Below are positions 1 through 18,279 of a stretch of DNA of 26,051 nucleotides, one piece after another. The stretch is taken from the IMG/VR virus record IMGVR_UViG_3300015186_000011, positions 1 through 26,051 of that record; one strand, 5' to 3'. The translations under genes and the position numbers were made by a program. The notes under the pieces were generated by a model. The model saw only the letters and a list, made by a program, of their open reading frames with translations. It had not been told where the DNA came from and did no database searches. How positions within the stretch are numbered: the stretch's first letter is position 1; each line of letters begins with the position of its first letter. This stretch comes from a virus (taxonomy: Duplodnaviria; Heunggongvirae; Uroviricota; Caudoviricetes).

Positions 1-1148
1 GAAGATGGATTAGAAACCACACCACCACTAACATCCATATTAGAAACACAATCTACAGTATATTTTTTATTTCCTACACCGTACATCAGGAATGTGGTCC
101 CTGTGGTAATATCAGGAGCAAATGTTGCAGTATATCCAGAGCCCCATTTGCCCACACCAAGACCAATTATCCCACCACCAGAAACAGGTGTTAACGTATC
201 CGTTATTACATACGCATTATCAGTACCATAAATAACCTTTCCTGTGTTAATGGCAGCTTGCCACGCGGCCCAGTCTATTGACTGAGATAATGAGTCAACA
301 AAAGGATATAAGGATTTTGCTTCAGAAATTGAAGAAAACCTCTCAGATAATGGATGATATTTCCCATCCCCAATTGCTCCGAATTGTTTTACATTTAAGA
401 AAAGAGCATTGTTTTCATGCTGAGTTATAGTTACAGCCCCGGCAAATGGCTGCCTTACACCAATTAATGCATCACCTTTTCCTTCTCCTGCGCTAGATAA
501 TTGCAGAAGAACATCTGCGGCACTGCCAGAAGGCACAGGTACACCTATAGGTTTACCATTGACGATACCAATGACAGTTTCTTCCAGTAAATGAACTGGA
601 GGAAGTGGTTCAATAAAATTATCTGGAACCCGTAATGTCCTGTTAATATTCACATTAACAATATTATCAACATAATTCTTTGTAGCTGCATCTTGAGGCT
701 TGGAAGGATCGCGCAAATTGCGGATGTAATTATTCAAAGCATCGTAATAGTTTGCCACAAATGATGGCTTGCGCAGCGCCAGGCTAAACCAACTGCGGAC
801 TTGCTGTATCAGCATCGTCAGCTTATCTAACGCGTCTTCATGCACCTCAGCGAAAAACTTTCCCTGATTTCGCAGATCAGTTTCCTGCGTAACCGGTAGC
901 TCTCGTGATATAGAAATCTGATAACCGTTAGCTAACGCCTTCGACAGAATTACATTACCGCCATTATATCCACCAGCCCCAGTGACAGTGTAATCAGTAT
1001 CAAGAGCCAGCACAGCGATATTTTCGTCAAGGTCAACCACCTGTACTGCCAGATCAGATTCCTTGAAAACCCTAAAGGTATACGGGAATGATGTCGTAAC
1101 GCCGTTACCGGTGTATTCGTTGTGGTCAACTTCGGTTGAGACCGTCAT
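1..1148 (-). CDS. Tailspike protein, C-terminal end cut by the left window edge; conserved N-terminal particle-binding domain followed by a beta-helix depolymerase-like body
   Basis: Absent from the ORF track because it is open at the window edge. ATG at 1148-1146 with GGAGA at 1156-1160. Hand translation MTVSTEVDHNEYTGNGVTTSFPYTFRVFKESDL...LRDPSKPQDAATKNYVDN matches, from memory, the N-terminus of epsilon15 gp20-type tailspikes. Further on, FGAIGDGKYHPLS resembles pectate-lyase-fold tailspikes. Confidence 0.85.
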   Translation of the reverse strand, partial: MTVSTEVDHNEYTGNGVTTSFPYTFRVFKESDLAVQVVDLDENIAVLALDTDYTVTGAGGYNGGNVILSKALANGYQISISRELPVTQETDLRNQGKFFAEVHEDALDKLTMLIQQVRSWFSLALRKPSFVANYYDALNNYIRNLRDPSKPQDAATKNYVDNIVNVNINRTLRVPDNFIEPLPPVHLLEETVIGIVNGKPIGVPVPSGSAADVLLQLSSAGEGKGDALIGVRQPFAGAVTITQHENNALFLNVKQFGAIGDGKYHPLSERFSSISEAKSLYPFVDSLSQSIDWAAWQAAINTGKVIYGTDNAYVITDTLTPVSGGGIIGLGVGKWGSGYTATFAPDITTGTTFLMYGVGNKKYTVDCVSNMDVSGGVVSNPS

Positions 1149-1201
1149 GTTAAATCTCCAGATAGTCGCAGCACCCGTTGCGCCGCATATCCGGTTATTC
1201 T

Positions 1202-1267
1202 ATTACCTGAAAAACCACATATGGATAGACAACCCATAAATACGAACAGATATTACCTTTCAGGTGA
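1202..1267. promoter_or_regulatory. Intergenic control module, copy 1: ATTACC-N5-AACCACATATG (1202-1223) plus dyad TTACC-N5-GGTGA (1253-1267) overlapping a TAGACA-17-GATATT promoter-like element
   Basis: Lies between the tailspike start (1148, minus) and the plus-strand accessory genes. The same two motifs recur at 21199-21276 upstream of the portal operon. -35 at 1226-1231, -10 at 1249-1254 (plus strand). Confidence 0.45.
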
Positions 1268-1300
1268 TTCGCAAAACGTGCTGGATAGCAAACAAATTAT

Positions 1301-1329
1301 TTGATACTGTATAAACATACAGTTATTGC
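1301..1329 (+). promoter_or_regulatory. SOS-regulated promoter: TTGATA-17-TATTGC with a LexA box filling the spacer
   Basis: TACTGTATAAACATACAGTT at 1305-1324 is CTGT-N8-ACAG and matches 17/20 of the LexA consensus TACTGTATATATATACAGTA. It sits 20 nt upstream of the ATG at 1344. Confidence 0.7.
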
Positions 1330-1343
1330 ATGGAGAAGATAAG

Positions 1344-1601
1344 ATGCAGCAGTATCACTATCCACTGGAAGACGGATTTACCGAAAGGATTCACACGCCG
1401 GGAGGCGTCAGATCACTAGTGGAGGGATCGCACTTGATGAAATTACTCCGGGATCTCGATAAGGATGGATTTAATGTCGATGGCCCACTTGCCGAACTGA
1501 CTGCACTGATTAACTACGTCACCAGCTCACAGATGTCTATGCAGGATCTGCAAACACATCTCGACTATTGTGCCGAACAATTACGAAAGCAAACCAGATA
1601 A
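1344..1601 (+). CDS. 85-aa stand-alone homologue of the C-terminal domain shared by the two antirepressors; candidate SOS-inducible antirepressor or modulator
   Basis: ATG at 1344 with GGAG at 1332-1335 (the track's TTG start at 1326 has no RBS). The sequence YHYPLEDGFTERIHTPGGV..LMKLL..L.KDGFNV.G..AELT....Y......L.D.QTH..Y aligns by eye at ~35-40% identity with the last ~80 aa of ORFs 1915-2607 and 3858-4802. Confidence 0.65.
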   Translation: MQQYHYPLEDGFTERIHTPGGVRSLVEGSHLMKLLRDLDKDGFNVDGPLAELTALINYVTSSQMSMQDLQTHLDYCAEQLRKQTR

Positions 1602-1639
1602 GGTTTGCAATTACCAAGCGGAGTGCTTATATTTACCTT

Positions 1640-1762
1640 TGCGGTAAATTTACATCGCACTCCTCTTGTGCCATAGTAATCGAGCACTGGCAAAATCCAG
1701 TGCCGGGATTGGTCTCCCGGATTACTACAGAGGCACATATGCCGCATAAGCGGTTTTTTTAT
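1640..1762 (+). ncRNA. Candidate ~120-nt sRNA, or a structured 3'UTR of the upstream gene
   Basis: Promoter-like TTGCAA (1604-1609)-18-TATATT (1628-1633). Dyad TTACC-N5-GGTAA at 1633-1647. Hairpins GCACTGG/CCAGTGC (1684-1703) and CGGGA/TCCCG (1704-1719). Weak terminator CCGC-ataa-GCGG plus T7 at 1742-1760. Only implausible ORFs overlap it. Confidence 0.3.
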
Positions 1763-1914
1763 GTGTAAAGCGCACCTATTCTATGGTGGGCTGTGTGGGG
1801 GCACCGAAAGGTGCGCCGGGTTCCTTTGTAGCCGGTAAGACCAACTCTGCACAGTTCACCACCATCTGATTGGTCTCAGCGGTGGTGATTAACCTAACTA
1901 CAAAGGTGATCGCC

Positions 1915-2607
1915 ATGAATACCAAACCTTCCATCTTTTCCTTTGAGTCATCCTGCCAGATCCGTATGTTCATGATTGACGGAGAACCTTGGTTTGTCAC
2001 CAAAGATGTGTGCAATGCTTTGAATATTGATGTTACACAAGCGAGAAAACTTGATAAAAAAGGCTGGAACAAAAAGGGGCTGTATTCAATACAGACCCCT
2101 GGTGGAATACAAGAACTATCCATCGTTTCAGAATCAGGTCTCTACATCCTTATTCTGCGTTGCAAAGAGGCAATGACTGAGGGAACGAGAGCATTCAGAT
2201 TTCTTGAATGGGTTACAGGTGAGGTTCTTCCTCAGATCCGCCGCACCGGAAGTTACATTAAAAACTCGCTCCCGCAGGAAGAACGCATAAAGATGGTTGC
2301 CGACCAGGTAGCCAACGCCACGGCGTCAGCAGTGATGCAGGCGATGAAGATAGAGAACAAAACCTACAGTGCCCCACTGAAGCCCGGCTACCGCAGCCTG
2401 ATTCATTCGCCGTCTGGTGTTCTCGGCCTGACGGAGAACTCACTGCTGATGAATTTGCTGAACAAGTTACAGGAAGACGGGCACGATGTATCGGGCGCGG
2501 CAGCGGAGCTGACCACCATGTTCTGCTACATCGTCGGTGTGAGCAAATGCCTGCGTGATATCCAGACGCACGCGGAGTACATCAATGACAAGGCAGGGTT
2601 CTTCTGA
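1915..2607 (+). CDS. BRO-N domain antirepressor-like protein (230 aa) with the shared C-terminal domain
   Basis: ATG at 1915 preceded by AAGGTG. The N-terminus SIFSFESSCQIRMFMIDGEPWFVTKDVCNALNI...GGIQELSIVSESGLYILILRC...AFRFLEWVTGEVLPQIRRTGSY is the classic Bro-N pattern. The C-terminal 78 aa are nearly identical to those of the Ant homologue. Confidence 0.85.
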   Translation: MNTKPSIFSFESSCQIRMFMIDGEPWFVTKDVCNALNIDVTQARKLDKKGWNKKGLYSIQTPGGIQELSIVSESGLYILILRCKEAMTEGTRAFRFLEWVTGEVLPQIRRTGSYIKNSLPQEERIKMVADQVANATASAVMQAMKIENKTYSAPLKPGYRSLIHSPSGVLGLTENSLLMNLLNKLQEDGHDVSGAAAELTTMFCYIVGVSKCLRDIQTHAEYINDKAGFF

Positions 2608-2630
2608 CGGGCGGCGGCACATGGATGTGC
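2374..2630. repeat. Left arm of a 257-bp inverted repeat (partner 3835-4091)
   Basis: By-eye alignment with the reverse complement of 3835-4091 shows about 11 mismatches and no indels. It covers the last ~78 codons, the stop and a GGCACA-n4-TGTGC hairpin. Nearly all differences are synonymous (one K/Q change). Confidence 0.9.
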
Positions 2631-2692
2631 CTACAATTATCAATAATTGTTTACACTCGTTGCAGTTAAAAGCATTATACTCATGTTTAAAA

Positions 2693-2707
2693 TTACCCGA
2701 TTGGTAA
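2693..2707. promoter_or_regulatory. TTACC-N5-GGTAA dyad (site E) upstream of the cassette genes
   Basis: TTACCcgattGGTAA lies 22 nt before the ATG at 2729. A possible TTTACA (2650-2655)-17-CATTAT promoter lies upstream. Confidence 0.4.
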
Positions 2708-2728
2708 AGTCGATTGGTTGAGGTTCAT

Positions 2729-3055
2729 ATGAGCAGAAGATATGTCAAGGAGCTGGCTATAGAGTCTGGCACCCCTTTGGGTATCGTTCCTGGCTCCAAC
2801 TATGCCAAGGCTTTAAACCGAGACTCTGTCGTCAAAGTTATATCAAGAGACATGAATATGGTCGGAGACGATCTCAGACGGTCAGAAAATCGTGTTTATG
2901 CTGAATATATAGTAAAGAACGGAAAAAAAATTGCAGCGCCTGCTGGCGGAAAATGGGCAATAGTGACAGGGAAAAACTCAAATGCAAGAGGAAAACCAGA
3001 AGCTAAAGGAATGTCCTTCGACAAATATGCAAAAATCTATTGGGCAACCAAGTGA
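2729..3055 (+). CDS. Hypothetical 108-aa basic protein, first gene of the cassette
   Basis: ATG at 2729 with GAGGT 5 nt upstream (the track's start at 2714 lacks an RBS). I recognise no family. The C-terminus is Lys-rich. Confidence 0.55.
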   Translation: MSRRYVKELAIESGTPLGIVPGSNYAKALNRDSVVKVISRDMNMVGDDLRRSENRVYAEYIVKNGKKIAAPAGGKWAIVTGKNSNARGKPEAKGMSFDKYAKIYWATK

Positions 3056-3530
3056 TAACGAAGAAACTGAGTTCGAGGAAGTTGAGGAAGGGCTAAGTAA
3101 CGAGATCATTCAACACCCAGATGCCTTCACAAGAGTTCTTGATCGCCCTGAAATTCAGGAGATAGTTGTCGCTCACCATGCGTTTCAGGGTCCGCTTCCT
3201 CCCCCCTATCTGCTTCGCGGGTATCAGGATATTTTACCTGATGCCCCCGAACGCATCTTCCAGCTGACGGAGAAGGAGTTTGCTCACCGCCAGAAAATGG
3301 AGGAAAAGGCACTTGACGGGGCTATTAATAGAGATAAACGTGGGCAGTGGTTTGGCCTGAGTGCAACTATTTTTACAGTAGCTTGTGCAACATTATTAGG
3401 TTTAACAGGTCATGAAGTTCTAGCTGGCACAGTGATCGGTACAGTTGTTGCAGTGGCTGGTATTTTTGTTCTCAGACAAAAACCGAGCTTAAAGAAGAAC
3501 GCTGAAGATAAAACACCAGAAGAAGAGTAA
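2982..3530 (+). CDS. DUF2335-like membrane protein (start ambiguous: 2982 or 3027)
   Basis: An acidic N-terminus is followed by HHAFQGPLPPPYLLRGYQDILPDAPERIFQLTEKEFAHRQKME and two C-terminal TM helices. From memory this is the DUF2335 signature. It overlaps the upstream ORF in another frame. Confidence 0.7.
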   Translation: MQEENQKLKECPSTNMQKSIGQPSDNEETEFEEVEEGLSNEIIQHPDAFTRVLDRPEIQEIVVAHHAFQGPLPPPYLLRGYQDILPDAPERIFQLTEKEFAHRQKMEEKALDGAINRDKRGQWFGLSATIFTVACATLLGLTGHEVLAGTVIGTVVAVAGIFVLRQKPSLKKNAEDKTPEEE

Positions 3531-3551
3531 GCCCGCGACGCGGGCTTTTTT
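3531..3551 (+). terminator. Rho-independent terminator
   Basis: GCCCG-cgacg-CGGGC followed by TTTTTT, immediately after the stop codon at 3528-3530. Confidence 0.85.
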
Positions 3552-3623
3552 GTGGGCGAAACAAAAGTCAGTGCTACACTCATTGACGCCACATTGAGGT
3601 GGTTTATAGATGGAAATTTCACA

Positions 3624-3785
3624 ATGAAAAAAGCATTTGCTGCACTGTTCGTTTTGTTGTCTCTGGTAGCTTCAACTCAGGCCTTTGCCGGTCGTTGTCA
3701 GCACGACAGCGACACTGCTGCTGACGGCTCCCGCTGCGGTGGGCGTTCTGCGGATTCCCGCCCGGGCGGCGGTGGCATTCGTTAA
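3624..3785 (+). CDS. Small secreted peptide (53 aa) with a signal peptide
   Basis: MKKAFAALFVLLSLVASTQAFA|GRCQHDSD...: a typical Sec signal with an AFA-G cleavage site. The mature ~31 aa carries 2 Cys and a Gly-rich tail. TTGACG (3583-3588)-16-TATAGA lies upstream. The track's ORF start at 3552 is unlikely. Confidence 0.5.
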   Translation: MKKAFAALFVLLSLVASTQAFAGRCQHDSDTAADGSRCGGRSADSRPGGGGIR

Positions 3786-3790
3786 AAACA

Positions 3791-3808
3791 AGGCCGCGAA
3801 AGCGGCCT
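3791..3808. terminator. GNRA-loop hairpin terminator between convergent genes; the U-tract is on the minus-strand (ant) side
   Basis: AGGCCGC-gaaa-GCGGCCT. The minus-strand transcript would continue as UUGUUUUUA. There is no U-tract on the plus strand. Confidence 0.7.
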
Positions 3809-3820
3809 GTGACATGTCAC
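3809..3820. repeat. 12-bp perfect palindrome GTGACATGTCAC (site 1 of 3)
   Basis: Exact copies occur at 22255-22266 and 24520-24531. This one abuts the terminator hairpin at 3791-3808. Confidence 0.9.
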
Positions 3821-3834
3821 GATAGTTTCGTTTT

Positions 3835-4091
3835 GCACATCCCTGTGCCGCCGCCCGTCAGAAGAACCCTGCCTTGTCGTTGATGTACTCCGCGTGCGTC
3901 TGGATATCACGCAGGCATTTGCTCACACCAACGATGTAACAGAACATGGTGGTCAGCTCCGCCGCCGCGCCCGATACATCGTGCCCGTCTTCCTGTAACT
4001 GGTTCAGCAGATTCATCAGCAGTGAGTTCTCCGTCAGACCGAGAACACCAGACGGAGAATGAATCAGACTGCGGTAGCCGGGCTTCAATGG
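3835..4091. repeat. Right arm of the 257-bp inverted repeat (partner 2374-2630)
   Basis: See the left arm. It covers the 3' end of the ant homologue plus ~23 nt beyond its stop. Confidence 0.9.
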
Positions 4092-4802
4092 ATAACCATA
4101 ACATTTTGTCTGTGTTTTAATTGCCTCACGAAGCGCATCTAACATCTTGACTGCCACTTCATCATTCTCTGATGCAGATCCAGCAGGGAGATACTCCCCT
4201 TCAAGCGGAACCCGAGCAACAAGAGACAACGCTTCGGCAAATTGATCTTCACCAATTTCTTTGTACGAACAGCCAAAATGAGATTTCAGTGACGACCACA
4301 TGGTGATCATCGCCTTAGCCTGTTTTTCTTTTGGCAGAGACTGACCGCGACTCATGACGAGTTGTTTAATGGCTTCCTGCTGTTCAGTTGTTATTTTACC
4401 CGGCAACGCCTTTTTAGCTTTGCGTGGGTTAACCACATGGCCTTTAGTCCAGTACTCGTAGAGCACATCGTCACACTCTTCCTGATACTGGATTACCTTG
4501 TCGCGGATTTCAGGGCGGACTTTGTTAGGGCTGATGGTTTGCAGCCAACCTGCAAGTTTGCGTAAAGCAAGACAGATAACCAGACGACGCTGAGTATCAC
4601 CGGGGAGCTGAATGGTCATTTCGACCATGCAGCTCTTAAAGCGTTGTTGCAACTTGCGGAACTGCGTTTTCCAGTCCAGCCCCATACCTTCAACGACTGG
4701 TTTCATTGGGGTGTATGGTTCGCCGTTATGATTGACAACATAAAGCTCTGCGCCGTGGAATGGCACGTTGATAGTAGATACCGCTGTTGCTATACTCGTC
4801 AT
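3858..4802 (-). CDS. ant: Antirepressor, P22 Ant-type N-terminal domain (314 aa)
   Basis: VPFHGAELYVVNHNGEPYTPMKPVVEGMGLDWKTQFRKL...LRKLAGWL fits the P22_AR_N pattern from memory. It sits directly downstream of an Arc-like gene and opposite an Mnt-like gene, as in P22 immI. Confidence 0.85.
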   Translation of the reverse strand: MTSIATAVSTINVPFHGAELYVVNHNGEPYTPMKPVVEGMGLDWKTQFRKLQQRFKSCMVEMTIQLPGDTQRRLVICLALRKLAGWLQTISPNKVRPEIRDKVIQYQEECDDVLYEYWTKGHVVNPRKAKKALPGKITTEQQEAIKQLVMSRGQSLPKEKQAKAMITMWSSLKSHFGCSYKEIGEDQFAEALSLVARVPLEGEYLPAGSASENDEVAVKMLDALREAIKTQTKCYGYPLKPGYRSLIHSPSGVLGLTENSLLMNLLNQLQEDGHDVSGAAAELTTMFCYIVGVSKCLRDIQTHAEYINDKAGFF

Positions 4803-4877
4803 GTCGTTAATTCCTATACGTAGTTTTACGATACTGAAGCCCTGACGGTCTGGCCACCGTGGGGCTTCGCTGTTTTA
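4803..4877 (+). ncRNA. sar-like antisense RNA (~70 nt) covering the ant RBS and the arc-ant spacer
   Basis: A strong promoter, TTGATA (4768-4773)-17-TATACT (4791-4796), lies inside the first ant codons and points the other way. Predicted TSS is ~4803. A terminator hairpin at 4836-4868 is followed by GCTGTTTTA. Geometry and size mirror P22 sar. Confidence 0.5.
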
Positions 4878-5042
4878 TGCCACGCTATTCTTCTCACCAG
4901 TGAGTCCATACACTTTCCTCAGCTGATAGATAATCTCTGTATTGAACTTTCGGCATTCTTTTTCGCCATTTCTTTCAATAGCTAACTTCACATCGTCCGG
5001 AAAACGAACTCGTCGTTGACACATCTCTTTTGCTTTTTGCAT
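4875..5042 (-). CDS. arc: Arc-like ribbon-helix-helix repressor (55 aa)
   Basis: ATG at 5042 with AAGGAG 7 nt upstream (the track's start at 5063 lacks an RBS). RVRFPDDVKLAIERNGEKECRKFNTEIIYQLRKVYG parallels P22 Arc (FNLRWPREVLDLVRKVAEENGRSVNSEIYQRVMESF). Confidence 0.75.
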   Translation of the reverse strand: MQKAKEMCQRRVRFPDDVKLAIERNGEKECRKFNTEIIYQLRKVYGLTGEKNSVA

Positions 5043-5132
5043 TTCATATCTCCTTAGCCCCACCGTGGGGCAAAATAATTGTCACACCGTGCGTCATTGA
5101 TGTCAAGCACACGGTGAGGCATACTTCAATCA
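5043..5132. promoter_or_regulatory. Divergent overlapping promoters with RHH operators (Pant-like / Pmnt-like)
   Basis: Minus strand: TTGACA (5106-5101)-17-GACAAT (5083-5078). Plus strand: TTGATG (5097-5102)-17-CATACT (5120-5125). A 15-bp palindrome GCCCCAC-C-GTGGGGC sits at 5057-5071, at the predicted +1 of the ant promoter. CACCGTG (5085-5091) and CACGGTG (5110-5116) each lie in a promoter spacer. Confidence 0.6.
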
Positions 5133-5162
5133 TTGCAAGTAACTCAATATTTGGTGAAGAAC

Positions 5163-5594
5163 ATGAGCAGAGAAGATCCACAACTAAGGATCAGACTTCC
5201 CGTTGAAGTAAAAGAAAAAATAGAAATTTCTGCAAAAGCCAATAAGCGATCAATGAACGCTGAAATAGTACAACGTCTTGACACCAGCTTTCTGAAAGAT
5301 ATTCATGAAGATGACGTAATTTCTGCTTATGAAGCAAAAATTATTGCAAACAATGCACGACATGAAATATCAAATATTATTTTCAAAAGAACCTTTAATG
5401 AAATTAATAAGAAAATAACACTTGGACATACAAGTTTTTATATAAACCTTAATGACCTTGAACTGGAATCACTTGCAGATAATGATTACCAGATCATCTT
5501 TGAAAAAACATTTAATAAGCTCAATGAACTAGGTTACATCATCTGTGAAAACTCATGGGATGCAGATGGTTTTGGAATTGAAATACCTGAATAG
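5163..5594 (+). CDS. mnt: Mnt-like RHH repressor with an extra AT-rich C-terminal domain (143 aa)
   Basis: MSREDPQLRIRLPVEVKEKIEISAKANKRSMNAEIVQRL aligns with P22 Mnt MARDDPHFNFRMPMEVREKLKFRAEANGRSMNSELLQIV (from memory). The ATG at 5163 follows GGTGA. P22 Mnt is only 83 aa, so the last ~90 aa are additional. Confidence 0.8.
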   Translation: MSREDPQLRIRLPVEVKEKIEISAKANKRSMNAEIVQRLDTSFLKDIHEDDVISAYEAKIIANNARHEISNIIFKRTFNEINKKITLGHTSFYINLNDLELESLADNDYQIIFEKTFNKLNELGYIICENSWDADGFGIEIPE

Positions 5595-5605
5595 GAAGAA
5601 CAAAA

Positions 5606-5632
5606 GGCGTGTACATATTACACGTCTTTAAT
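5606..5632 (+). terminator. Hairpin terminator after the mnt-like gene
   Basis: GGCGTGTA-catat-TACACGTC (8 bp including one GU pair) followed by TTTAAT. Confidence 0.55.
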
Positions 5633-5684
5633 ACAATTGAAAAACGCCACATTACTGATGTATGTTACAACAAGGAGCGATATT

Positions 5685-6248
5685 TTGAAAACCATATCTA
5701 TATTAAAGGTTGCATTAGGCGTCGCTATTATTTTGACTCTCTCAATATTGTTTTATTTTTACCACAAAAAAACTGCTATTGCTCTTGATGGTCACGCGGC
5801 AAACTCATTTTTCTCAGAGTACATAGTGCCGCTATCAGGAAGCGGTATAACAAATAAATATACTGACTATGACATCAAATATGGAATTGATGATGGGGAG
5901 ACTATTGTATTACATGTAATCATTAAAAACCTAATGACAGTAAATAAAAATACAGACTTCAACGATAAAAATACAATACATCACAACAACAGCAAAACAT
6001 TAATTTCTTATAGTAGCAACATCTATACGGATAAATACCTAAAATACATATCAGAAGATACAATAAAAGAAACCCGCGAAAAGTTAAAAAACATATATTG
6101 TGCATCCGGCAGTTTTCACAAATTATCGCCGCAAGAGCGTTTATTCTACGAAGCAAGAAAACAACGTAAGTCAATAATATTACATTATTATGCTGATTCA
6201 GGGGAGTCACTCATATTTAATATTGGGGTTTCCCCTGAATCATGCTAA
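5685..6248 (+). CDS. AT-rich N-terminally anchored membrane protein (187 aa from TTG 5685; 196 aa from ATG 5658); SieA-position moron
   Basis: AAGGAG at 5672-5677 lies 7 nt before TTG 5685, giving MKTISILKVALGVAIILTLSILFYFYHKK (a signal anchor). The ATG at 5658 and the TTG at 5637 have no RBS. The region is visibly low in GC compared with its flanks. I recognise no family. Confidence 0.6.
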   Translation: MKTISILKVALGVAIILTLSILFYFYHKKTAIALDGHAANSFFSEYIVPLSGSGITNKYTDYDIKYGIDDGETIVLHVIIKNLMTVNKNTDFNDKNTIHHNNSKTLISYSSNIYTDKYLKYISEDTIKETREKLKNIYCASGSFHKLSPQERLFYEARKQRKSIILHYYADSGESLIFNIGVSPESC

Positions 6249-6259
6249 AGGTGTTTAAC

Positions 6260-9200
6260 TCACCGCATCACCGGATCCACCTGGTTTATTAGTGGCGCAA
6301 TCCAGAACAGGTTATTGCCGGGTATCAGGGTTCGGACATTATGCACAATACGATCACCGGCATCACCATTCAACACTCCTGCGGTCACATCAATGATGCT
6401 ATCCGCAAGACCAAATGACGGTCCGAATAGAGATCCTACGAATCCACGACTGGCATACCTAGACTGTGTGCCAGTGCCAAATAAAGCCCCCAGCCCAACA
6501 GCACCACCAGTAGCCTTTTCAGCCATGTTGTTATATTCCATCAATGGCCCAAGAATACCGGATCTATCTATACCCTCAAGCACCAGCTTCTCTGGTGACC
6601 AGTCAACATTTTTCCCTTTCGATGCTTCTTTAAGCGCATAGACCAGTGAGCCAAGAGCAATCTGAAATGCAGTGCCATAATAAAATTGCGCAGTTCCTTC
6701 CTGTAACCCACCAAGTAGCGCACGGTTGTATGAAGCCGTTGTGAATGATTTAAACTGAAATATCGTTCGCCCCATTGGAGTACTCGCCCATAAAGGTGTG
6801 TCACCAATACCGGGGGTGATGATAGTGTTATTAACGTCTTTCAGAACCGCTGACTGGAATACTCCGGCAACGTACTGATCGTCCCATTTATCAAAGTTAC
6901 CAATGTGCCATCCATCAATTACCTCACCATGTTTCTCGAACTCACTGCGAATACGCGCAGCCATATTGTCGTTGATACCGAGTTTTGCCATGCGACGTGC
7001 AGAAAACGCACCAGACAAAATACCGTCTGACGTGAGCATTCCGTTCATGGATTTGTTTATGTCATTAAATCGATCCATGAGTGTCAGCTTGCCGAAGGCA
7101 TCAGTAATTCGCTCCATTCCTGCTTCGACTGCTGTTGTCCTGGAAGAACTGTCAACAAGATCACCAATTGCACGAGAACGTGAATGTAGTACAGTTTCCA
7201 ATCCAATCCCCATCTTCAACATCTCTTCTTTGCTGGCCTTAAATGCCGGTGATTGGGATATCTGAGAAGCATAGCCTTTCATGGTGTTACGGAAACCATT
7301 AACCATAACCCCTCTGGCCAGATCTGGAATAGCTGATACTGTCATTCCACCGAGTTTGGTCGTGAAGTTCACATCCCGCAGAAAAGCGCCAGCACGAACA
7401 AAAAACGAAGACGGGTCATCAGGCATACCATATGTACCAACAAGACGATCGCGTAATGCTGTTATGTCTCTGAGATCATTTGCTCTTGATTTTGAAAGTC
7501 TGGACTGTTCTTTCCGTAATTCCTTTTCGTACTTTCGCATTAATGAATCGAGTTTACCCTGAGGAACAACTTCACCATTGCTCTCATAACGTGCTTTCAG
7601 ATTTGCCACACTTTCGTCATATTTCGCCTTTATTTTTTCAGGCACTTCCCGTAACAGACTGTCATATTCGTCCTCAATTAATTGCAGACGCTCAGTCATA
7701 GTTCGTTTGCCAAATGTTCTCGTCAACTCAATTTCTGCTGCCGCTTCACGGATATGACGTTGCAGCACGTAATTCACATCACTTTCAAGATAATCCCTGA
7801 TAAGACTATCAGGAACATTTAATGTTCTTTCTTTCGTACTACCTGCGGCTTTTACAGAAAATACGCTGACAAAATCCTGTGGAACCTTAGCACCAGTAAT
7901 TTTATTAATTACGATATCCGCTGCAATTTCAGCATCCTCAGGATCCAGTGTTTTATTGCCTCTCGACCACCAGTCAACCAAAATACGTCGAAATTTATCG
8001 CGTTCACTGATTATTTTTCCAACTTTATATATACGTGGAAAATAGCTTGCCTGGCCTAATGCTTTCAGTTCTTCATCTGGCGGTAATAAACCAAGCTTTT
8101 GCATTTCAACCTTCACCCGATTTAATACAGTTCGCATCGCCTGCGCCGTTTCCTGAACAACAGGATTAGCATGCACATCACCGCTTCGCATAGCATTCCC
8201 AACCTGCTGACGAAATGAATCAAAACTCATGTCGCCACCATCAGCTTTATACTTTGCGTATGCCTGTTTATTTCCGACAACAACAGCAGCTTCTTCACGC
8301 TGCCATCCACGTGTACGGGTTTCTACAGCTACCGGTGTTTCAATCCCCCTTTCATTTCCTTTAAGGGTGAAATTATTTTCGGCTAACTCCAGCGTTGTTT
8401 TTCGCACTGTCTTGGACGGAGACTCCATTAACCTTGTCAAAGGAGTAAGATAGCTCCCTGCTTTCCATGCAGCCTTTCCAACCCACCCACCGGAAACAGG
8501 GGTTAAATCATCCAGAGTCGCTGTATCAATTTTCATAGCACCAACACTACCACCATCAGAAAGCGAAGCGGCAGCCCTGTCAGTCGCTGATGTAATGCTC
8601 ATATTATCAAGAGCATCAGCAACCTCACGCGTGGCTGCAGCCCGGACGGATGGCGAAAGCGCAACACCAGCACTGGCAAACACGCCGCTCATCATCGCAC
8701 CCGCTGCAACGTGAGCGGCACTTTCACCCCATGAGCGTGTTATTTGCTGATTATTCAGCACAACCTCGCTTAATGCTGTACCGGCAGCACCAATCGCAAT
8801 CTGTGAGCCAATACGCGCCAGTGCCCCTCCTTGAGCACCGGGGATAAACATTGACGCAACAGTAACCGGATCCATTCCCGCAGCAATACTGGCAAGAGTT
8901 CCAACTACGCCAGCATCAGACAATAAACGTCTGTCTTCATTTTCATCATCTATCTGCTGCTTAATCCACGCCGTTTCCTCTGGCGATCGGGAATCTGCAA
9001 ATTTCGCCCCCCAGTATTCATAACCGTGCAACTCATTTTTATCAGCATATGGGTTATAACCTTCGACCGGTTCAAACTGTCTGGCTGGTCGGAAAAAACC
9101 AGCCAGAATATTGTTCTGTCGCATTGCAGCCCCCCATACGGAAGGCTCCGGTGGCAATGGCTCAGGATTAGCCCCTTCCGGAAGGGCAACATCAAACCCA

Positions 9201-9274
9201 GTTTGTTCCGGCAAAACATTACCTGACGGGATCAGTCCGTTATTAAGATCTTCAGCTTGTGCATAAACTGGCAT
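6260..9274 (-). CDS. Large internal virion / DNA-ejection protein (1004 aa)
   Basis: It is the last big gene of the tail/ejection block. Its start overlaps the upstream stop (TAATG at 9276-9272). The N-terminal third has Gly/Ala-rich hydrophobic segments (VGTLASIAAGM..., IAIGAAGTALSEVV, AAHVAAGAMMSGVFASAGVAL) and a central coiled-coil region. Confidence 0.8.
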   Translation of the reverse strand: MPVYAQAEDLNNGLIPSGNVLPEQTGFDVALPEGANPEPLPPEPSVWGAAMRQNNILAGFFRPARQFEPVEGYNPYADKNELHGYEYWGAKFADSRSPEETAWIKQQIDDENEDRRLLSDAGVVGTLASIAAGMDPVTVASMFIPGAQGGALARIGSQIAIGAAGTALSEVVLNNQQITRSWGESAAHVAAGAMMSGVFASAGVALSPSVRAAATREVADALDNMSITSATDRAAASLSDGGSVGAMKIDTATLDDLTPVSGGWVGKAAWKAGSYLTPLTRLMESPSKTVRKTTLELAENNFTLKGNERGIETPVAVETRTRGWQREEAAVVVGNKQAYAKYKADGGDMSFDSFRQQVGNAMRSGDVHANPVVQETAQAMRTVLNRVKVEMQKLGLLPPDEELKALGQASYFPRIYKVGKIISERDKFRRILVDWWSRGNKTLDPEDAEIAADIVINKITGAKVPQDFVSVFSVKAAGSTKERTLNVPDSLIRDYLESDVNYVLQRHIREAAAEIELTRTFGKRTMTERLQLIEDEYDSLLREVPEKIKAKYDESVANLKARYESNGEVVPQGKLDSLMRKYEKELRKEQSRLSKSRANDLRDITALRDRLVGTYGMPDDPSSFFVRAGAFLRDVNFTTKLGGMTVSAIPDLARGVMVNGFRNTMKGYASQISQSPAFKASKEEMLKMGIGLETVLHSRSRAIGDLVDSSSRTTAVEAGMERITDAFGKLTLMDRFNDINKSMNGMLTSDGILSGAFSARRMAKLGINDNMAARIRSEFEKHGEVIDGWHIGNFDKWDDQYVAGVFQSAVLKDVNNTIITPGIGDTPLWASTPMGRTIFQFKSFTTASYNRALLGGLQEGTAQFYYGTAFQIALGSLVYALKEASKGKNVDWSPEKLVLEGIDRSGILGPLMEYNNMAEKATGGAVGLGALFGTGTQSRYASRGFVGSLFGPSFGLADSIIDVTAGVLNGDAGDRIVHNVRTLIPGNNLFWIAPLINQVDPVMR

Positions 9275-11991
9275 TATTTAGATCCCCACGAAAAGTAATC
9301 TTTAAATTTGTCCATACGTTCGTTATGCAGGCGCTGATACTGCTCATCCAGAGCGCGATGCTTGTCTTTGAAGTTTCGTATAGCCTGTCCACGCATAATT
9401 TCTTCCTGCTCGTACTGCTCCCATTCCTGCTGCATTTTCTTATAAGGTTCCCAATCTTCTAGTGATGGTTCCCAACGCATAGGACGCCCATGTTTGTTAT
9501 AAAACGGCTGGACCCGATCGATGCCATTTTCATCCTTAGTTCTTACCATAATGGCGTAATCACCATTACGAGGTGTTAACACGTCAGGGGTTATGAATAA
9601 TTCTCCATTAATACGACTCTCAGGGGTTTTTGTCTCAACTACAGGAGCATTACCTGACGTGATCCCAAGCAACGTCGGACTGGTTGTTATAATCTCTTTG
9701 CGCTCACCGTACATCAGCCGTTCTTTTTCAGCTTTCCACTGCGCCGCCTGCCAGCCTGACGGCCCATATTGATAAAGCGCCTCCGGTGCATATTTCATAA
9801 ACTGCGCTTCTCCGTTAACCTCGCTGATACTCCAGGTGCGGGCTATCTGCTGGTTGGTCATTTGCTTCGCTACGTCAGCGTTACCACCAGCAACGCGGTA
9901 GTTAATGTCATACAGCGTCTGATAGTCATTACGGAATCTAGCTGCTTCCGGCGTCTGGTCATCCGCAGACGGATCCCAACGGAACCACTGCGCCATATTG
10001 CTGACAGCAGAATTCATCGCCTTGCTGCGATCATTTTTGTACTCTTTTGAACTCTGCGTTGATGCCAATTGAGCTTTAAGAGCATCGGTCTGGTTGTACG
10101 TAAGGTTCTGCGCCTGCTCGATAGCCGCATCAGCAGACATGCCAGAATCAGTTAGTTGCTTAACAGTCAGATAAAAACCCTGCATATCCTTCGGCATATT
10201 TCCAATAGATGCATTGTCTGTTTCATATAACCGACTAAACAGTTCCGCCGCATTTTTAACCACTTCCTGATTGCTGGATCGGGATACTGCTGAAAGCTGC
10301 GTGATGACCTGCGAAGGCATTATGCCAGTCTGAGCCACAAGCCGAACAACCCCATCATGAGTGGAGGCATCATTAATACGAAAGTTCTGCGCCATTTCTG
10401 TGTAATCAGCAGCTTTCTGCATTGACTTGTTGCTTGGGTCTAATTTTTCACCTATTGTCAGCGCCTCATTGAATCTGCGTGAATCCCGTTGCGCCTGAAT
10501 TGCTTCATTTGATCTCTGAAGCAATGCAGACAATTTTCCGTAAGCATCGAGTTTTAACGCATAGTGAGGATCGTTAACCTCAGGCTTCACTTTCTGCATT
10601 TCTTCTTGCTGCTGAGAAGGAGGCAAATACTGAATTGCCTGGAATATTCTCGCGTTATCAATCGCTATATCCAGTTGATTGATTATTTTATCTGCGTTTT
10701 TTCCATACCCCCTGATGATGGTCTCCTGAGCCGGTATATAATCTGGAACCTCACCGTTATATAGCTGTGCCATGGTGTTATTAATAGCTGGCTCAAGCTG
10801 TTCTAATATTAACTTCCTTTGCTTTTCTATCTGACTATTAGCAAGGTTATCTATTTGATAAATAGTCAGCGGATCCATTCCAGTTTTATTTTTTCTATAT
10901 CGGGAAAGCCACCCTTGTGTTTCTGATGGAAGATTTCGGATAAATTCTTCTTCTGATATTTCACCTTTACGTGGATCACCGACTTTGGCGATCAGTTTAT
11001 CCACGTTACCCATCCCCCAGTTATATGCTGCTCCGGTCAATATTTCGGAACCGTACTTACCATACAGTTGATTTACATAGTCACTGGCGAGCATTTCATG
11101 CTGTTGTTCGTCCGTAGGGTTGTATTCAACGCCACGCTTGGCCGCCAGTTCTTTTCCTGTGCCCGGCATTAACTGGTATTTCCCCTGTGCTCTCTCTCCA
11201 GAAGATGTTATCGGTCCCTCAAGAAGACTACCATCAGGATTAAAATGTCGATCACCTGATTCAACAAGGCGTATGGCACGCATGTCCATGCCTCCAGAAT
11301 CATTTTTCTGAAACAGACCATTTAGCCATCCTTCTGGATTGGCAGCGGCATAATTCTTCGCCCGCATTTCTGTGGCACTGCGATCATCACTTTCTATTTC
11401 TTCCAGAATGCGTTCTTGTGACCATCCCCTGGCAGCTCCATATCTGGCAATGGCTACCATTCTGGAATTTCGGGCTAAGGTGGCAGTTTGCGGGTCATTC
11501 CAGGCATCCGCTTCATTTTGTATCCATAATTTTCTCGTTGCCTGATATTGCTCATCTTCATAGGCATTTGTCTGCCCTATCTCATGTCTGAGAACTCCAG
11601 TACTGAACTGAATTTTCTGTGTTCTGGCTTGTTGCAAAAACATATTTCTTGCTGCTTCATCAGTCAATGAAGCAGCTATTTCTTCCACATCCTGATCAAA
11701 TCCAGATATGTACTCTTGCCCCTTACCAATCGCATTTTTGCCTTGTTGTGCATAAAAACCGGTTTGAGGGTTATAAAGACGTTCATTGCTGCGCTGATTA
11801 AGCTGAAGGATGGCATCCTGAGACAATGCAACATTCGCTTTCTGCCTGGCTTCACCATATGCCACCGCATACTGATCTGCGACATTCGCCAGCACCTGAC
11901 CTGCTTGAGGAACATCGAAGGTCTGAAAACCACCGGTTTGCACACCACGACTTTGCACCTGACGTCCGGATATTGTTGGTACGACTGGCAT
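9274..11991 (-). CDS. Internal virion protein with an SLT lytic-transglycosylase domain (905 aa)
   Basis: True start is ATG 11991 (MPVVPTISGRQ) with GGAGG upstream and a TAATG overlap with the preceding gene; the track's start at 12066 is an artefactual extension. SLT motifs: LVESGDRHF, GKYQLMPGTG, TGAAYNWGMGNV (~nt 10730-11290). Confidence 0.9.
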   Translation of the reverse strand: MPVVPTISGRQVQSRGVQTGGFQTFDVPQAGQVLANVADQYAVAYGEARQKANVALSQDAILQLNQRSNERLYNPQTGFYAQQGKNAIGKGQEYISGFDQDVEEIAASLTDEAARNMFLQQARTQKIQFSTGVLRHEIGQTNAYEDEQYQATRKLWIQNEADAWNDPQTATLARNSRMVAIARYGAARGWSQERILEEIESDDRSATEMRAKNYAAANPEGWLNGLFQKNDSGGMDMRAIRLVESGDRHFNPDGSLLEGPITSSGERAQGKYQLMPGTGKELAAKRGVEYNPTDEQQHEMLASDYVNQLYGKYGSEILTGAAYNWGMGNVDKLIAKVGDPRKGEISEEEFIRNLPSETQGWLSRYRKNKTGMDPLTIYQIDNLANSQIEKQRKLILEQLEPAINNTMAQLYNGEVPDYIPAQETIIRGYGKNADKIINQLDIAIDNARIFQAIQYLPPSQQQEEMQKVKPEVNDPHYALKLDAYGKLSALLQRSNEAIQAQRDSRRFNEALTIGEKLDPSNKSMQKAADYTEMAQNFRINDASTHDGVVRLVAQTGIMPSQVITQLSAVSRSSNQEVVKNAAELFSRLYETDNASIGNMPKDMQGFYLTVKQLTDSGMSADAAIEQAQNLTYNQTDALKAQLASTQSSKEYKNDRSKAMNSAVSNMAQWFRWDPSADDQTPEAARFRNDYQTLYDINYRVAGGNADVAKQMTNQQIARTWSISEVNGEAQFMKYAPEALYQYGPSGWQAAQWKAEKERLMYGERKEIITTSPTLLGITSGNAPVVETKTPESRINGELFITPDVLTPRNGDYAIMVRTKDENGIDRVQPFYNKHGRPMRWEPSLEDWEPYKKMQQEWEQYEQEEIMRGQAIRNFKDKHRALDEQYQRLHNERMDKFKDYFSWGSK

Positions 11992-12536
11992 TATAATCCT
12001 CCGGGTAATCTGGTTCCTGCTGCTGCCCCGATTGGCGCAGGAGTGCTTTGAGTAAACGGACTCCACGTCCCACCAAACATCTGGTACGCACCGTATGCCT
12101 TCAGAGGCGCAGTGAGCAATGTTGTTGCTGCTCCCACATTCCCCTGTTTACGGGCTGAACTGGCTTCTGCTTTATAGTTGGCAGCCTGAACCTGATAACC
12201 GTAAGCCTCGCGTTGCGCGTTATTCACCGTCGTCAGCGAATCAAGAGCGCCAAACTGGGCAGTGTCGCCAAATATATCCAGCGCGTTACCGGTAGATAAA
12301 TCGGCGCCGGTCGCCCCCATTGTCGCCGCTTGAGTACCAAGCCGCTGTCGGGTCTCTCTGCGCCGTTGCTCAGCTTCAGCGTTACCTCTGTTTATTGCAT
12401 CATTTGCCTGAGCAGTGGCTATATCTGCGTTCGCTTCTGCAACCTTCGAGGCATACTTTCCCTGTTGGTACTGGGTGTATGCCTGAATGCCACTCATGGC
12501 GAGCATTGCGCCACCAGCAATAACCGGATCGCACAT
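11991..12536 (-). CDS. Small virion/ejection-module protein (181 aa), Ala/Gln-rich with a hydrophobic N-terminus
   Basis: Translationally coupled at both ends (TAATG at 12538-12534 and at 11993-11989). The composition is typical of podovirus internal core proteins. The specific family is not recognised. Confidence 0.7.
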   Translation of the reverse strand: MCDPVIAGGAMLAMSGIQAYTQYQQGKYASKVAEANADIATAQANDAINRGNAEAEQRRRETRQRLGTQAATMGATGADLSTGNALDIFGDTAQFGALDSLTTVNNAQREAYGYQVQAANYKAEASSARKQGNVGAATTLLTAPLKAYGAYQMFGGTWSPFTQSTPAPIGAAAGTRLPGGL

Positions 12537-13000
12537 TATTTTCTCTCCATGTGAAATCTGTGGAAATTAAGACCAAGAGCACCATAAGGCGCGGCTTCTT
12601 CAAGCCTGAATCCAAGCCAGTGCAGCCATGCTTTGGCAACATGGTTTCGCTCGTCGACGTAGTTTTCCAGGCGCGGATAAACTGCCAGCATCTGCTGCAA
12701 TACAGGTCGGCAGTGGCGAAGAAATGTCTTCTGATATTTTTCAATACGGCTGGTTCCTACCAGCCAGGGTGTACCATTGCCACCGATCATTGACGCCGGA
12801 GATACACCAAACATGGTTACCAGTTCTCCGTTCGCGAACCCTGACCAGGCCATAGTCGCAGTGCGAAGACCAACACGCAGCGCATCTTCGGTAGTCATCA
12901 GCGATACCGCATACAGTTCGTCAATATCAACCTGACGAACATCCGGCAAAATCATCTGAAGATGCTCTTCGGTGGCGGGAATAATTCGAACATCGATCAT
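12536..13000 (-). CDS. Conserved tail/virion-module protein of unknown function (154 aa)
   Basis: A complete ORF coupled to its neighbours (TGATG at 13002-12998). It lies between the nozzle and the internal proteins. Confidence 0.7.
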   Translation of the reverse strand: MIDVRIIPATEEHLQMILPDVRQVDIDELYAVSLMTTEDALRVGLRTATMAWSGFANGELVTMFGVSPASMIGGNGTPWLVGTSRIEKYQKTFLRHCRPVLQQMLAVYPRLENYVDERNHVAKAWLHWLGFRLEEAAPYGALGLNFHRFHMERK

Positions 13001-15465: not shown

Positions 15466-16070
15466 CAGGACAACCTCGCAATGGTAAACTCGTCAACCGG
15501 TGGCTGTGGTTCCTGTGATTCATTCTGGCTATGCGAGCCAGCACTAAGAATCACGCGATTGTACATATTGAGGGCAAACGTACCGAGGTCTGCATTCCCA
15601 GTCAGCGCCATGTTAATAGCTGCCGCAAGACGCCAGGCCAACGCCTCCATAAAAATGGCATCAAACATGTTCACATCTGAAACGCGAGAGACATACTTGA
15701 GCCATGCCTGCGGCTGGTCTGTGTAGATCAACTTTCCTGTTCCGTCGGTGTCTGCACCAACTTCGTACTGAACGCGCATTGCTGCTGTTGGATTGCGAAC
15801 ACCGGGAAGCATGATTTCAGTGATGCGCAGGCAATCAGACGGGTACTGATACGCATACGCCCAGTCAGGCGGTGGATTGCTCGTATCTGCAAGCGCCACG
15901 CGTTTGGTAGCAAAGTTCCAGTCAAAATCAGAAAGCACAGCATCACGACAGGCATCGAAATGCAGGGAACACTCCCCCGCCTCTTTGCTGGCCTCAGTCA
16001 GGCTATTGATGCTGCGACTGTTGCCGATATTCGACAGCGCGCGGTTGCAGATCTCGACAACAGAAGCCAT
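15465..16070 (-). CDS. Tail adaptor (tail tubular protein A-like, 201 aa)
   Basis: ATG at 16070 in a TGATG overlap (the track's GTG at 16073 is less likely). MASVVEICNRALSNIGNSRSINSL...DFDWNFATKRVAL matches the usual N-terminal pattern of podovirus adaptors. Confidence 0.7.
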   Translation of the reverse strand: MASVVEICNRALSNIGNSRSINSLTEASKEAGECSLHFDACRDAVLSDFDWNFATKRVALADTSNPPPDWAYAYQYPSDCLRITEIMLPGVRNPTAAMRVQYEVGADTDGTGKLIYTDQPQAWLKYVSRVSDVNMFDAIFMEALAWRLAAAINMALTGNADLGTFALNMYNRVILSAGSHSQNESQEPQPPVDEFTIARLS

Positions 16071-16393
16071 CACTCACCCCCGTTACCGTAAAGGGTTTCA
16101 GCAGCGGATTTATCCGGCTCGCCGGTTGCAGGTGCGATCGCCATGTCGGTGATCTGCAGGTCTGCGCTACGGTTAACGCCGTCATCAGTTTCGCGGGCAG
16201 ACAGTCCGCGAATTACCGCCTTAGCAGTAATCATCACTTCGGTTCCTACACCCTGCGGTTGCGCCTTGAGCTTATTCAGCGTGTCATTGTTCAACGTGAT
16301 GCAAAGCCCCCATGGATATTCGTCGCGGTTTTTGGTTTCTCCGCTCTCGTCCTGGTAGCTGTCGGTGCCGGTTTTGAGGTTGACCAGTTCCAT
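16070..16393 (-). CDS. Small head/neck-module protein (107 aa)
   Basis: ATG at 16393 lies 5 nt after AGGAG (the track's GTG at 16399 abuts the RBS). The stop overlaps the adaptor start. Confidence 0.65.
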   Translation of the reverse strand: MELVNLKTGTDSYQDESGETKNRDEYPWGLCITLNNDTLNKLKAQPQGVGTEVMITAKAVIRGLSARETDDGVNRSADLQITDMAIAPATGEPDKSAAETLYGNGGE

Positions 16394-16402
16394 ATACACT
16401 CC

Positions 16403-16427
16403 TGCAATAAAGGGGCCGAAGCCCCTT
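16403..16427 (-). terminator. Intra-operon terminator/attenuator after the capsid gene block
   Basis: Minus strand: AAGGGGC-uucg-GCCCCUU followed by UAUU. It lies between the stop at 16444 and the next RBS. Confidence 0.6.
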
Positions 16428-16443
16428 GTCTGATACGCGAGGC

Positions 16444-16779
16444 TTACACGCCCAGTTCTTTGCGCTTATCTGCGATTTTCTCGCGAAGCGTTTCGGCTTT
16501 GGCGTTATGGTGCGGCTTCTCGTTAAAGAGCAGTTCATACTCTTCGCGGATCTTATCCAGATCGCCATCTTCGGCTGCATCGTTGATGGGTTTGGCACTG
16601 GTTACGGTTTCTGCTGCTTTACCTGTAACCTTTGCTTTCGCCGCCTTCGCTGCATCGTTGATGGGCTCCAGTGCACTACCTGGCTCGCCGTCGTATTCAA
16701 TTTCAGAGCCCTCCGGCCACAGGTTATTGTGGATATGAGAGAGGCGCAGAACGCGGTACTTCGGTTTCTCACCTGACAT
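16444..16779 (-). CDS. Small capsid-associated protein (111 aa), decoration/staple candidate
   Basis: RBS GGGGA 5 nt before the ATG at 16779. It lies within the capsid block, and its size matches the ~12 kDa epsilon15 capsid staple protein as I recall it. The assignment among the three small ORFs is uncertain. Confidence 0.65.
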   Translation of the reverse strand: MSGEKPKYRVLRLSHIHNNLWPEGSEIEYDGEPGSALEPINDAAKAAKAKVTGKAAETVTSAKPINDAAEDGDLDKIREEYELLFNEKPHHNAKAETLREKIADKRKELGV

Positions 16780-16789
16780 CGATATCCCC

Positions 16790-17227: not shown

Positions 17228-17278
17228 CTTCTTTCTCCATTAGTGGGTCTGTTACGACCCACTGGTTAATAACAGGCG

Positions 17279-18271: not shown

Positions 18272-18279
18272 TTCCTCTC

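Follow-up and report, generated by a model that had tools for sequence, protein, structure and literature searches.

A LexA-linked antirepressor gene of an epsilon15/phiV10-like Escherichia coli podophage and two larger proteins that share its module

Prophage induction can be coupled to DNA damage through small antirepressors whose synthesis is controlled by the host SOS repressor LexA. A passage of a review that cites Kim & Ryu 2013 describes how self-cleavage of LexA lets the antirepressor be made and how the lytic repressor is inactivated by protein contact, and it cites that work among studies of SOS/LexA-dependent antirepressor synthesis in Salmonella prophages (PMC7380047). In phage SPC32H, according to a passage in a further source, each Ant tetramer contacts two Rep dimers and disrupts the tetrameric form of Rep that binds DNA (PMC9638917). 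Tum of coliphage 186, under promoter p95, and GfoA/GfhA of the Gifsy prophages follow a similar logic: the repressor is non-cleavable, and what disables it is a small antirepressor kept off by LexA. The present analysis concerns positions 1301-1601 of a 26,051-nucleotide stretch of viral DNA (IMG/VR record IMGVR_UViG_3300015186_000011, positions 1 to 26,051; hereafter the window), in which an 85-aa open reading frame (ORF) follows a LexA box. Judged from its sequence, this segment very probably represents the lytic-switch gene ant of an epsilon15/phiV10-like E. coli podophage together with its LexA operator, the protein being an ortholog of SPC32H Ant. The Ant/Rep/LexA lytic switch of SPC32H was reportedly worked out by Kim and Ryu in 2013 and by Kim et al. 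in 2016, with PDB 5D50 as the structure. The core of the LexA-Ant switch is already established for this close ortholog and is in itself ordinary. Our literature and database searches found no description of the sharing of the module with two larger neighboring proteins, of the replacement of P22_AR_C by it in one of them, or of three separate control circuits; taken together, these features extend what is known modestly and offer a convenient natural experiment for studying how modular antirepressors are.

The stand-alone ant gene and its LexA box

The ant gene (1344-1601, plus strand) encodes an 85-aa stand-alone antirepressor that is 88% identical over its full length to SPC32H Ant (SPC32H_020, annotated 'anti-repressor protein') and matches chain E of PDB 5D50 (E=4e-47) as well as PHROG 450 (E=9e-48). 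Its reading frame extends from an ATG at 1344 to a stop at 1601, and a Shine-Dalgarno sequence, GGAG (1332-1335), lies 8 nt before the ATG. For comparison, 16 orthologous loci were collected from phage records and genome loci of nine genera (Escherichia, Salmonella, Enterobacter, Citrobacter, Erwinia, Pseudocitrobacter, Scandinavium, Superficieibacter and Klebsiella); GGAG is kept in 15 of them, the Erwinia locus having GGAA. The locus resembles that of SPC32H in the size of Ant (85/86 aa), its position divergent from the tailspike gene, the position and arms of the LexA box, the Rep-operator palindrome upstream and the phage genus. It differs in the host, which is E. coli, in the Rep protein, which in the closest relatives of the window is only 42% identical to SPC32H Rep, and in its surroundings: SPC32H lacks both the downstream cassette and the fused paralogs, and its virion genes directly follow ant.

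An earlier note on this DNA, made without database searches, had proposed a LexA-controlled small antirepressor at this position, and the orthology to SPC32H Ant (88% identity, structure PDB 5D50) argues for it. The precedents named in that note, 186 Tum and the Gifsy proteins, hold as functional analogues only, whereas the true precedent, SPC32H Ant, had gone unnamed. BLASTP between small Ant and Tum gives E=0.06 over 46 aa, which is not significant, and small Ant has no Tum or DinI family match in Pfam or PHROGs; homology to Tum was accordingly rejected and the protein assigned to the SPC32H Ant family. Phage 186 also belongs to a different family from the window phage.

The LexA box, TACTGTATAAACATACAGTT (1305-1324), is located 19 nt upstream of the ant ORF and matches the 20-nt consensus at 17 positions. 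No other site in the 26-kb window has three or fewer mismatches from that consensus, and none arose in 100 shuffles; both the near-consensus SOS box and the adjoining 85-aa ORF had been read correctly in the earlier note. The shorter pattern CTGT-N8-ACAG occurs twice in the window against 0.28 expected, the box being one of the two. The other occurrence (CTGTAAACCCGTACAG, 21791-21806) lies just downstream of tRNA-Arg(tct) (21599-21675) and 73 nt upstream of a Phage_gp49_66-family ORF (21879-22250), and is doubtful as a LexA site because its center is GC-rich.

Across the 16 orthologous loci, a LexA-type palindrome is found at a constant distance (-42 to -45) from ant codon 2. CTGT and ACAG are invariant in 11 of these loci, with a central 8 nt that drift (e.g., ATAAACAT, ATGTTTAT, GTATTTAT and ACATATAT), and the left arm is ATGT in the other five, namely three Klebsiella phages, a Klebsiella pneumoniae genome locus and the Superficieibacter locus. 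A fixed position, invariant arms and a drifting center constitute the footprint expected of a constrained LexA site. A scan of genome contigs for small Ant yielded eight loci; a Nitrosomonas match (30% identity) has no LexA box. The record of SPC32N, a clear-plaque sibling of SPC32H, differs from that of SPC32H by ACAG to AAAG in the right arm of the homologous box, and the abstract of Kim and Ryu's 2013 paper is said to attribute constitutive Ant in SPC32N to a point mutation in the LexA site.

Two candidate promoters can be drawn for ant. The earlier note had placed the box within the spacer of TTGATA-17-TATTGC (1301-1329, plus strand; -35 at 1301-1306, -10 at 1324-1329). These hexamers are present as described, but the assignment is probably off: TATTGC agrees with TATAAT at three of six positions and does not end in T, the consensus scan is silent on the pair, and a start near 1336 would drop the conserved Shine-Dalgarno sequence from the transcript. 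We prefer TGGATA-17-TACTGT (1282-1310, plus strand; -35 at 1282-1287, -10 at 1305-1310) as the candidate ant promoter, with an inferred start site; its -10 coincides with the left arm of the LexA box. Both hexamers fall inside blocks conserved in all orthologs, at a conserved spacing and with a drifting spacer sequence. TACTGT is likewise annotated as the -10 of the SOS promoter p95 in coliphage 186, where it forms the left arm of a LexA box (TACTGTATGTTTATACAGTA) that epsilon15 shares without a mismatch. The preference thus follows from the conserved hexamers, the p95 precedent and the retention of the Shine-Dalgarno sequence in the transcript. Under either candidate, the LexA box overlaps the predicted core promoter.

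The shared module in two larger proteins

Small Ant can be aligned over its entire length with the final ~80 aa of two neighboring proteins, a 230-aa BRO-N protein (1915-2607, plus strand) and a 314-aa Ant homologue (3858-4802, minus strand), at 39-40% identity and with 32 invariant columns in the three-copy alignment, as the earlier note had noticed. The fused module also matches chain E of PDB 5D50 (E=6e-15). It has no Pfam family, and DUF724 (E=0.004) was rejected as such, being below threshold and noise. A word-indexed protein search with small Ant returned only close stand-alone relatives without Pfam annotation, and a profile search was needed to reach the fusions. Run exhaustively against 1.84 billion representatives, the module profile gave only 63 clusters, mostly of stand-alone proteins of ~80-95 aa; in the longer proteins the module is C-terminal, behind AntA, Bro-N, Phage_pRha or ORF6N, and the window adds P22_AR_N to these. 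The family splits in two: the A-type, comprising the small LexA-wired Ant, and the B-type, comprising the fused copies and some stand-alone proteins of 95-97 aa. Thirteen columns are invariant across both types.

The B-type modules of the window lie in an inverted repeat of 292 nt at 91% identity (left arm 2339-2630, right arm 3835-4126), which runs ~23 nt beyond both fusion stop codons and encloses 1.2 kb of DNA containing three small ORFs; if the arms recombined, this segment would flip and both fusion proteins would stay unaltered. Over 78 core codons, the two fused modules differ by 10 synonymous changes and one non-synonymous change, which argues that both have been under purifying selection since the duplication. 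Neither fusion gene has a LexA box in the window motif scan.

The BRO-N fusion combines a Pfam Bro-N domain (aa 16-106) with the B-type module in its C-terminal 83 aa, and two structured RNAs are predicted upstream of it on the same strand. The first is an isrK-family small RNA (sRNA) with a terminator (1684-1760; Rfam RF01394, 74.7 bits against a gathering threshold of 50), and the second is a C4 antisense RNA of the P1/P7 immI type (1779-1866; Rfam RF01695, 78.6 bits against 45). A promoter-like TTTACA-17-CATAGT with TG (1649-1677, plus strand) has its predicted start at ~1684, position 1 of the isrK model, and its -35 is abutted by a Rep-operator-like palindrome (1632-1648). The C4 loop CCTTTGTAG (1823-1831) is complementary over 9 bp to CTACAAAGG (1898-1906), which overlaps the Shine-Dalgarno sequence of the BRO-N gene. 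The predicted arrangement resembles P1/P7 immI, where a C4 antisense RNA lies upstream of the antirepressor gene in the same orientation with a loop complementary to the ribosome-binding region, and also Gifsy-1 isrK-anrP; in the window, both RNAs immediately precede a BRO-N antirepressor gene. In P1, an operator of the primary repressor, Op51, lies at the cassette promoter, and the Rep-operator-like site of the window sits alike. Unlike in P1/P7, no icd-like ORF was seen in the window, and the antirepressor ends in an epsilon15-type module.

The BRO-N fusion is 80% identical overall to ORF4, the 'anti-repressor' of phage vB_EcoP_ZX5 (hereafter ZX5), with a single residue difference in the module, and the two phages have the same small Ant (100% identity); ZX5 differs in lacking a P22-type cassette. 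When ORF4 was overexpressed, ZX5 lysogens fell from 1e9 to 1e6 (~1000-fold) and the repressor mRNA level dropped by 75% (Li et al. 2022, PMC9782041). The same paper treats ORF4 as the sole antirepressor and leaves the small gene, LexA and SPC32H unmentioned (PMC9782041). In phiV10 (locus L002, 6765-7444), two separate genes, p23 (194 aa) and p22 (29 aa), stand in place of the BRO-N fusion, and the module matches in two pieces, which suggests a frameshift or a pseudogene in the type phage.

The 314-aa fusion begins with P22_AR_N (Pfam PF10547, aa 12-123, E=3e-45) and gives no Pfam match to P22_AR_C. Its residues 1-203 are nearly mismatch-free relative to the Ant of P22-like phage CUS-3 and closely match the Ant of Shiga toxin (Stx) phages, diverging more before ~residue 90. 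The CUS-3 and Stx-phage Ants carry P22_AR_C at aa 207-279, whereas the window protein has the Ant module there, from ~residue 204; the DNA breakpoint is near 4193, where megablast matches to Stx phages begin. Since P22_AR_C has been replaced by an epsilon15-type Ant module, the presumed target would be an epsilon15-type Rep and not a lambdoid C2/CI repressor.

This fusion is surrounded by an apparent P22-type immI cassette. A predicted sar antisense RNA (4804-4871, plus strand; Rfam RF00262, 44.8 bits against a gathering threshold of 43) is antisense to the arc-ant junction, and a promoter-like TTGATA-17-TATACT (4768-4796, plus strand) has its predicted start at ~4804, the sar 5' end. Upstream of the fusion gene, in the same operon, lies a gene for an Arc-like ribbon-helix-helix repressor (4875-5042, minus strand; PHROG 228 'Arc-like repressor', E=3e-5; gp41 of phage TL-2011b is annotated 'Arc-like repressor'), itself preceded by a promoter-like TTGACA-17-GACAAT (5106-5078, minus strand). 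A Mnt-like divergent repressor with an Arc-family N-terminal domain follows (5163-5594, plus strand; Pfam Arc PF03869, E=1e-14). P22_AR_N, the Arc-like gene, the divergent Mnt-like gene and sar RNA are thus all present as in P22 immI, the difference being an Ant without P22_AR_C.

Predicted control circuits and competing readings

Rep itself is represented in the window through operator-like palindromes. One of these, ATTACCTTTCAGGTGAT (1252-1268), of the form ATTACC-N5-GGTAAT, lies upstream of ant, and its half-sites are invariant in nine phages. This form occurs seven times in the window against 0.75 expected; besides the sites at ant and at the isrK promoter, Rep-operator-like sites are found at 2692-2708 (upstream of the next plus-strand ORF), 11993-12009, 21261-21277 and 24408-24442. 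The motif clusters around rep in SPC32H and TL-2011b, and the epsilon15 record annotates a homologous palindrome upstream of gp19 as a repressor-binding site. A palindrome immediately behind ant, ahead of the plus-strand cassette that follows, is also present in phiV10, ZX5, Tyrion and Klebsiella phages. Several of these palindromes mark the beginning of 'moron' cassettes on the plus strand, opposite in direction to the late operon, and the element at 21187-21277 repeats the ant-tailspike intergenic layout, with a TATTACC half-site, AACCACATATG and a full palindrome. Rep as a product of the window was rejected, no homolog being present in the 26 kb, because the immunity region lies outside it; the earlier note had likewise placed the immunity repressor outside. 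Rep of the SPC32H type is a helix-turn-helix protein of ~195-198 aa; the closest relatives carry a version that shares 42% identity with that of SPC32H overall, with 54% in residues 1-70 and 40% in residues 92-198 (compared loci: L011, 1007-1591; L010, 9740-10336).

By analogy with the SPC32H orthologue, host LexA would occupy the box at 1305-1324 in the lysogen, overlapping the ant core promoter and keeping ant silent. DNA damage would activate RecA, LexA would cleave itself and Ant would be made. As a tetramer, the state known for SPC32H, Ant would bind the phage's non-cleavable helix-turn-helix repressor Rep, encoded outside the window, split the Rep tetramer into dimers and free the ATTACC-N5-GGTAAT operators, turning on the lytic genes. 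The BRO-N fusion would place the module under a Rep-operator-like site, the isrK sRNA and C4 RNA pairing with the ribosome-binding site, following the logic of P1 immI, and the P22_AR_N fusion would place it under a complete P22-type immI with mnt, arc and sar. In the latter, recombination may have swapped P22_AR_C for the resident module and so retargeted an imported antirepressor to the phage's own repressor. A feed-forward loop is also plausible, in which small Ant made in the SOS response removes Rep and thereby also unlocks the Rep-guarded BRO-N fusion cassette. That a single repressor-targeting module operates in three independent circuits (SOS/LexA; operator plus isrK/C4; Mnt/Arc/sar), the third acquired through the P22_AR_C swap, is put forward as a tentative proposal that may well fail.

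We infer that the B-type module is the repressor-targeting part of both large neighboring proteins. The earlier note had suggested a shared repressor-binding warhead with alternative N-terminal domains, and this idea gains indirect support from the domain swap, the five N-terminal families, the selection on the fused copies, the ZX5 overexpression result and co-occurrence with Rep. A survey of 50,697 phage records turned up 35 with the module and 36 with a homolog of SPC32H Rep; Rep accompanies the module in every one of the 35, and only one of the 36 Rep-bearing records lacks the module. The hypergeometric P value was set aside, the records being phylogenetically non-independent.

Several points weigh against the interpretation of the locus as a whole. 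The co-occurrence is confounded because all records belong to one phage lineage and share ancestry. No candidate ant promoter passes the consensus promoter scan, and, with no Rep homolog in the 26-kb window, the type of Rep is deduced from relatives, among them TL-2011b (gp10) and ZX5 (ORF21). The fused modules are only 39-40% identical to small Ant, so that Rep binding may not be conserved. An AlphaFold2 monomer of the fused module (predicted local distance difference test score, pLDDT, of 81) found no match at E<=0.001 in a Foldseek search against the PDB, not even 5D50, a null result that is uninformative because a small, all-helical single chain was modeled for a protein that is an obligate oligomer. 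The ZX5 experiment used GST-tagged full-length ORF4, and Rep binding was outside its scope (PMC9782041). Finally, Ant is 88% conserved while the Reps are only 42% identical, and simple co-evolution predicts otherwise. Together with the ~40% identity between B-type and A-type modules, this mismatch suggests that different Rep surfaces or Rep variants may be contacted, which keeps alive an alternative based on heteroimmune prophages.

According to that alternative, the C-terminal modules keep only the fold and tetramerization of Ant and do not bind the phage's own Rep, or they bind another Rep variant, that of heteroimmune epsilon15-like prophages; the large proteins would then be anti-immunity or cross-induction weapons and not extra triggers of self-induction. 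The Ant of P22 immI is the classic trans-acting anti-immunity factor. The low identity of the fused modules to the small Ant of the same genome, their distinct B-type subfamily and the strong divergence of Rep between lineages (42%) fit this view, as do the stand-alone B-type genes that lie beyond epsilon15-like prophages, in P4-like islands of Raoultella and Klebsiella, and have no Rep homolog within 10 kb in either direction. On the other hand, the module never occurs without a Rep homolog in the phage database, 13 columns are invariant in both subfamilies, and ZX5 was itself driven toward lytic growth when its BRO-N fusion was overexpressed (PMC9782041). We regard this explanation as rather unlikely.

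A second alternative takes up the dominant modulator of the earlier note: the 85-aa protein would act mainly on its paralogs, joining the BRO-N and P22_AR_N fusions in mixed tetramers through the shared oligomerization module and modulating them. SPC32H Ant is a tetramer and a helical core is common to all three proteins; however, most phages with small Ant (SPC32H, epsilon15, PAS61, BUCT554 and BUCT711) have no fused paralog and Ant is nevertheless their induction switch, and a sequence divergence of 60% makes efficient hetero-oligomerization uncertain, so we consider this idea quite improbable. The remaining possibility, a chance palindrome beside an ORF that is not a regulated gene, could appeal to the silence of the consensus promoter scan for ant, but it is effectively refuted by the comparative data, in which the position and contact bases of the box are kept across genera and the ORF persists at 58-100% protein identity in 35 phage records with a solved homolog structure, and by the failure of any of the 100 shuffles to yield such a site.

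Genomic setting and implications

The window covers the virion and late half of an epsilon15/phiV10-like (Uetakevirus) temperate podophage with E. coli as host. Terminase, portal and virion genes occupy 6260-24487 on the minus strand, and the 5' part of the tailspike gene (1-1147, minus strand) is divergent from ant, an order common to SPC32H, phiV10, epsilon15, Tyrion, BUCT554 and Klebsiella phages. On the minus strand at 1190-1230, ATTCTATTACC and AAACC.TATATG.AT form blocks that are invariant in nine phages; read on that strand, they contain TAGAAT and, 17 nt upstream, a -35-like hexamer (consensus TTCATA, TCCATA in the window). These hexamers could form a dedicated tailspike promoter overlapping a Rep half-site.

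For region 1150-6300, the nearest sequenced relative is phage TL-2011b, from an outbreak strain of enterohemorrhagic E. coli (EHEC) O103:H25, with 98% identity over 76%, and of 5426 complete E. coli genomes, 6 have prophage segments resembling this region (at least 80% covered). The antirepressor genes are interspersed with and flanked by cargo ORFs, which encode a 108-aa protein of PHROG 10654 (2729-3055), a 182-aa DUF2335 membrane protein whose ORF overlaps the former by 74 nt (2982-3530), a 53-aa secreted or membrane peptide (3624-3785) and a 203-aa protein of PHROG 8033 (5637-6248). In TL-2011b, a YafO-family toxin takes their place.

The B-type module is also found outside such fusions. 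Raoultella and metagenome loci (L025-L027) and Klebsiella loci (L022-L024) carry it by itself as a 95-aa gene that has no LexA box (10001-10288), and the 10 kb on each side of the Raoultella and Klebsiella copies contain no Rep homolog. In L025-L027 the module sits at the edge of a P4-like satellite island with Bro-N, Phage_ASH, a DUF927/Toprim primase and a single-stranded DNA-binding protein, with AlpA at the far end in L026; in the Klebsiella loci, only a short remnant with AlpA, a HicA toxin and Rap1a surrounds it. An E. coli phiV10-like prophage (L028, 10001-10294) carries the B-type module as a stand-alone 97-aa protein, encoded last in the early-left operon and adjoining int, a fourth genomic context of the module within the same phage lineage.

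The SPC32H mechanism would extend, through the ant locus described here, to E. coli phiV10/TL-2011b-like prophages, some of them from EHEC and avian pathogenic E. coli (APEC) strains, and SOS-inducing antibiotics would then be expected to induce these prophages via Ant and not via repressor cleavage. A module with a solved repressor complex occurs within 3.5 kb in a stand-alone form, fused to BRO-N and in place of P22_AR_C, which offers a testable handle on which part of 'antirepressors' of the BRO-N and P22-Ant types recognizes the repressor and on the role of their N-terminal domains. If the three-circuit proposal is true, the C-terminal domain would be the specificity warhead of BRO-N, P22_AR_N, AntA, pRha and ORF6N antirepressors, and the KilA-N-like N-terminal domain would be dispensable for repressor binding. 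The stand-alone B-type module of satellites may in turn be a helper-derepression factor, much as epsilon of P4 derepresses the helper P2; if so, P4-like satellites of Raoultella and Klebsiella could derepress epsilon15-like helper prophages through it.

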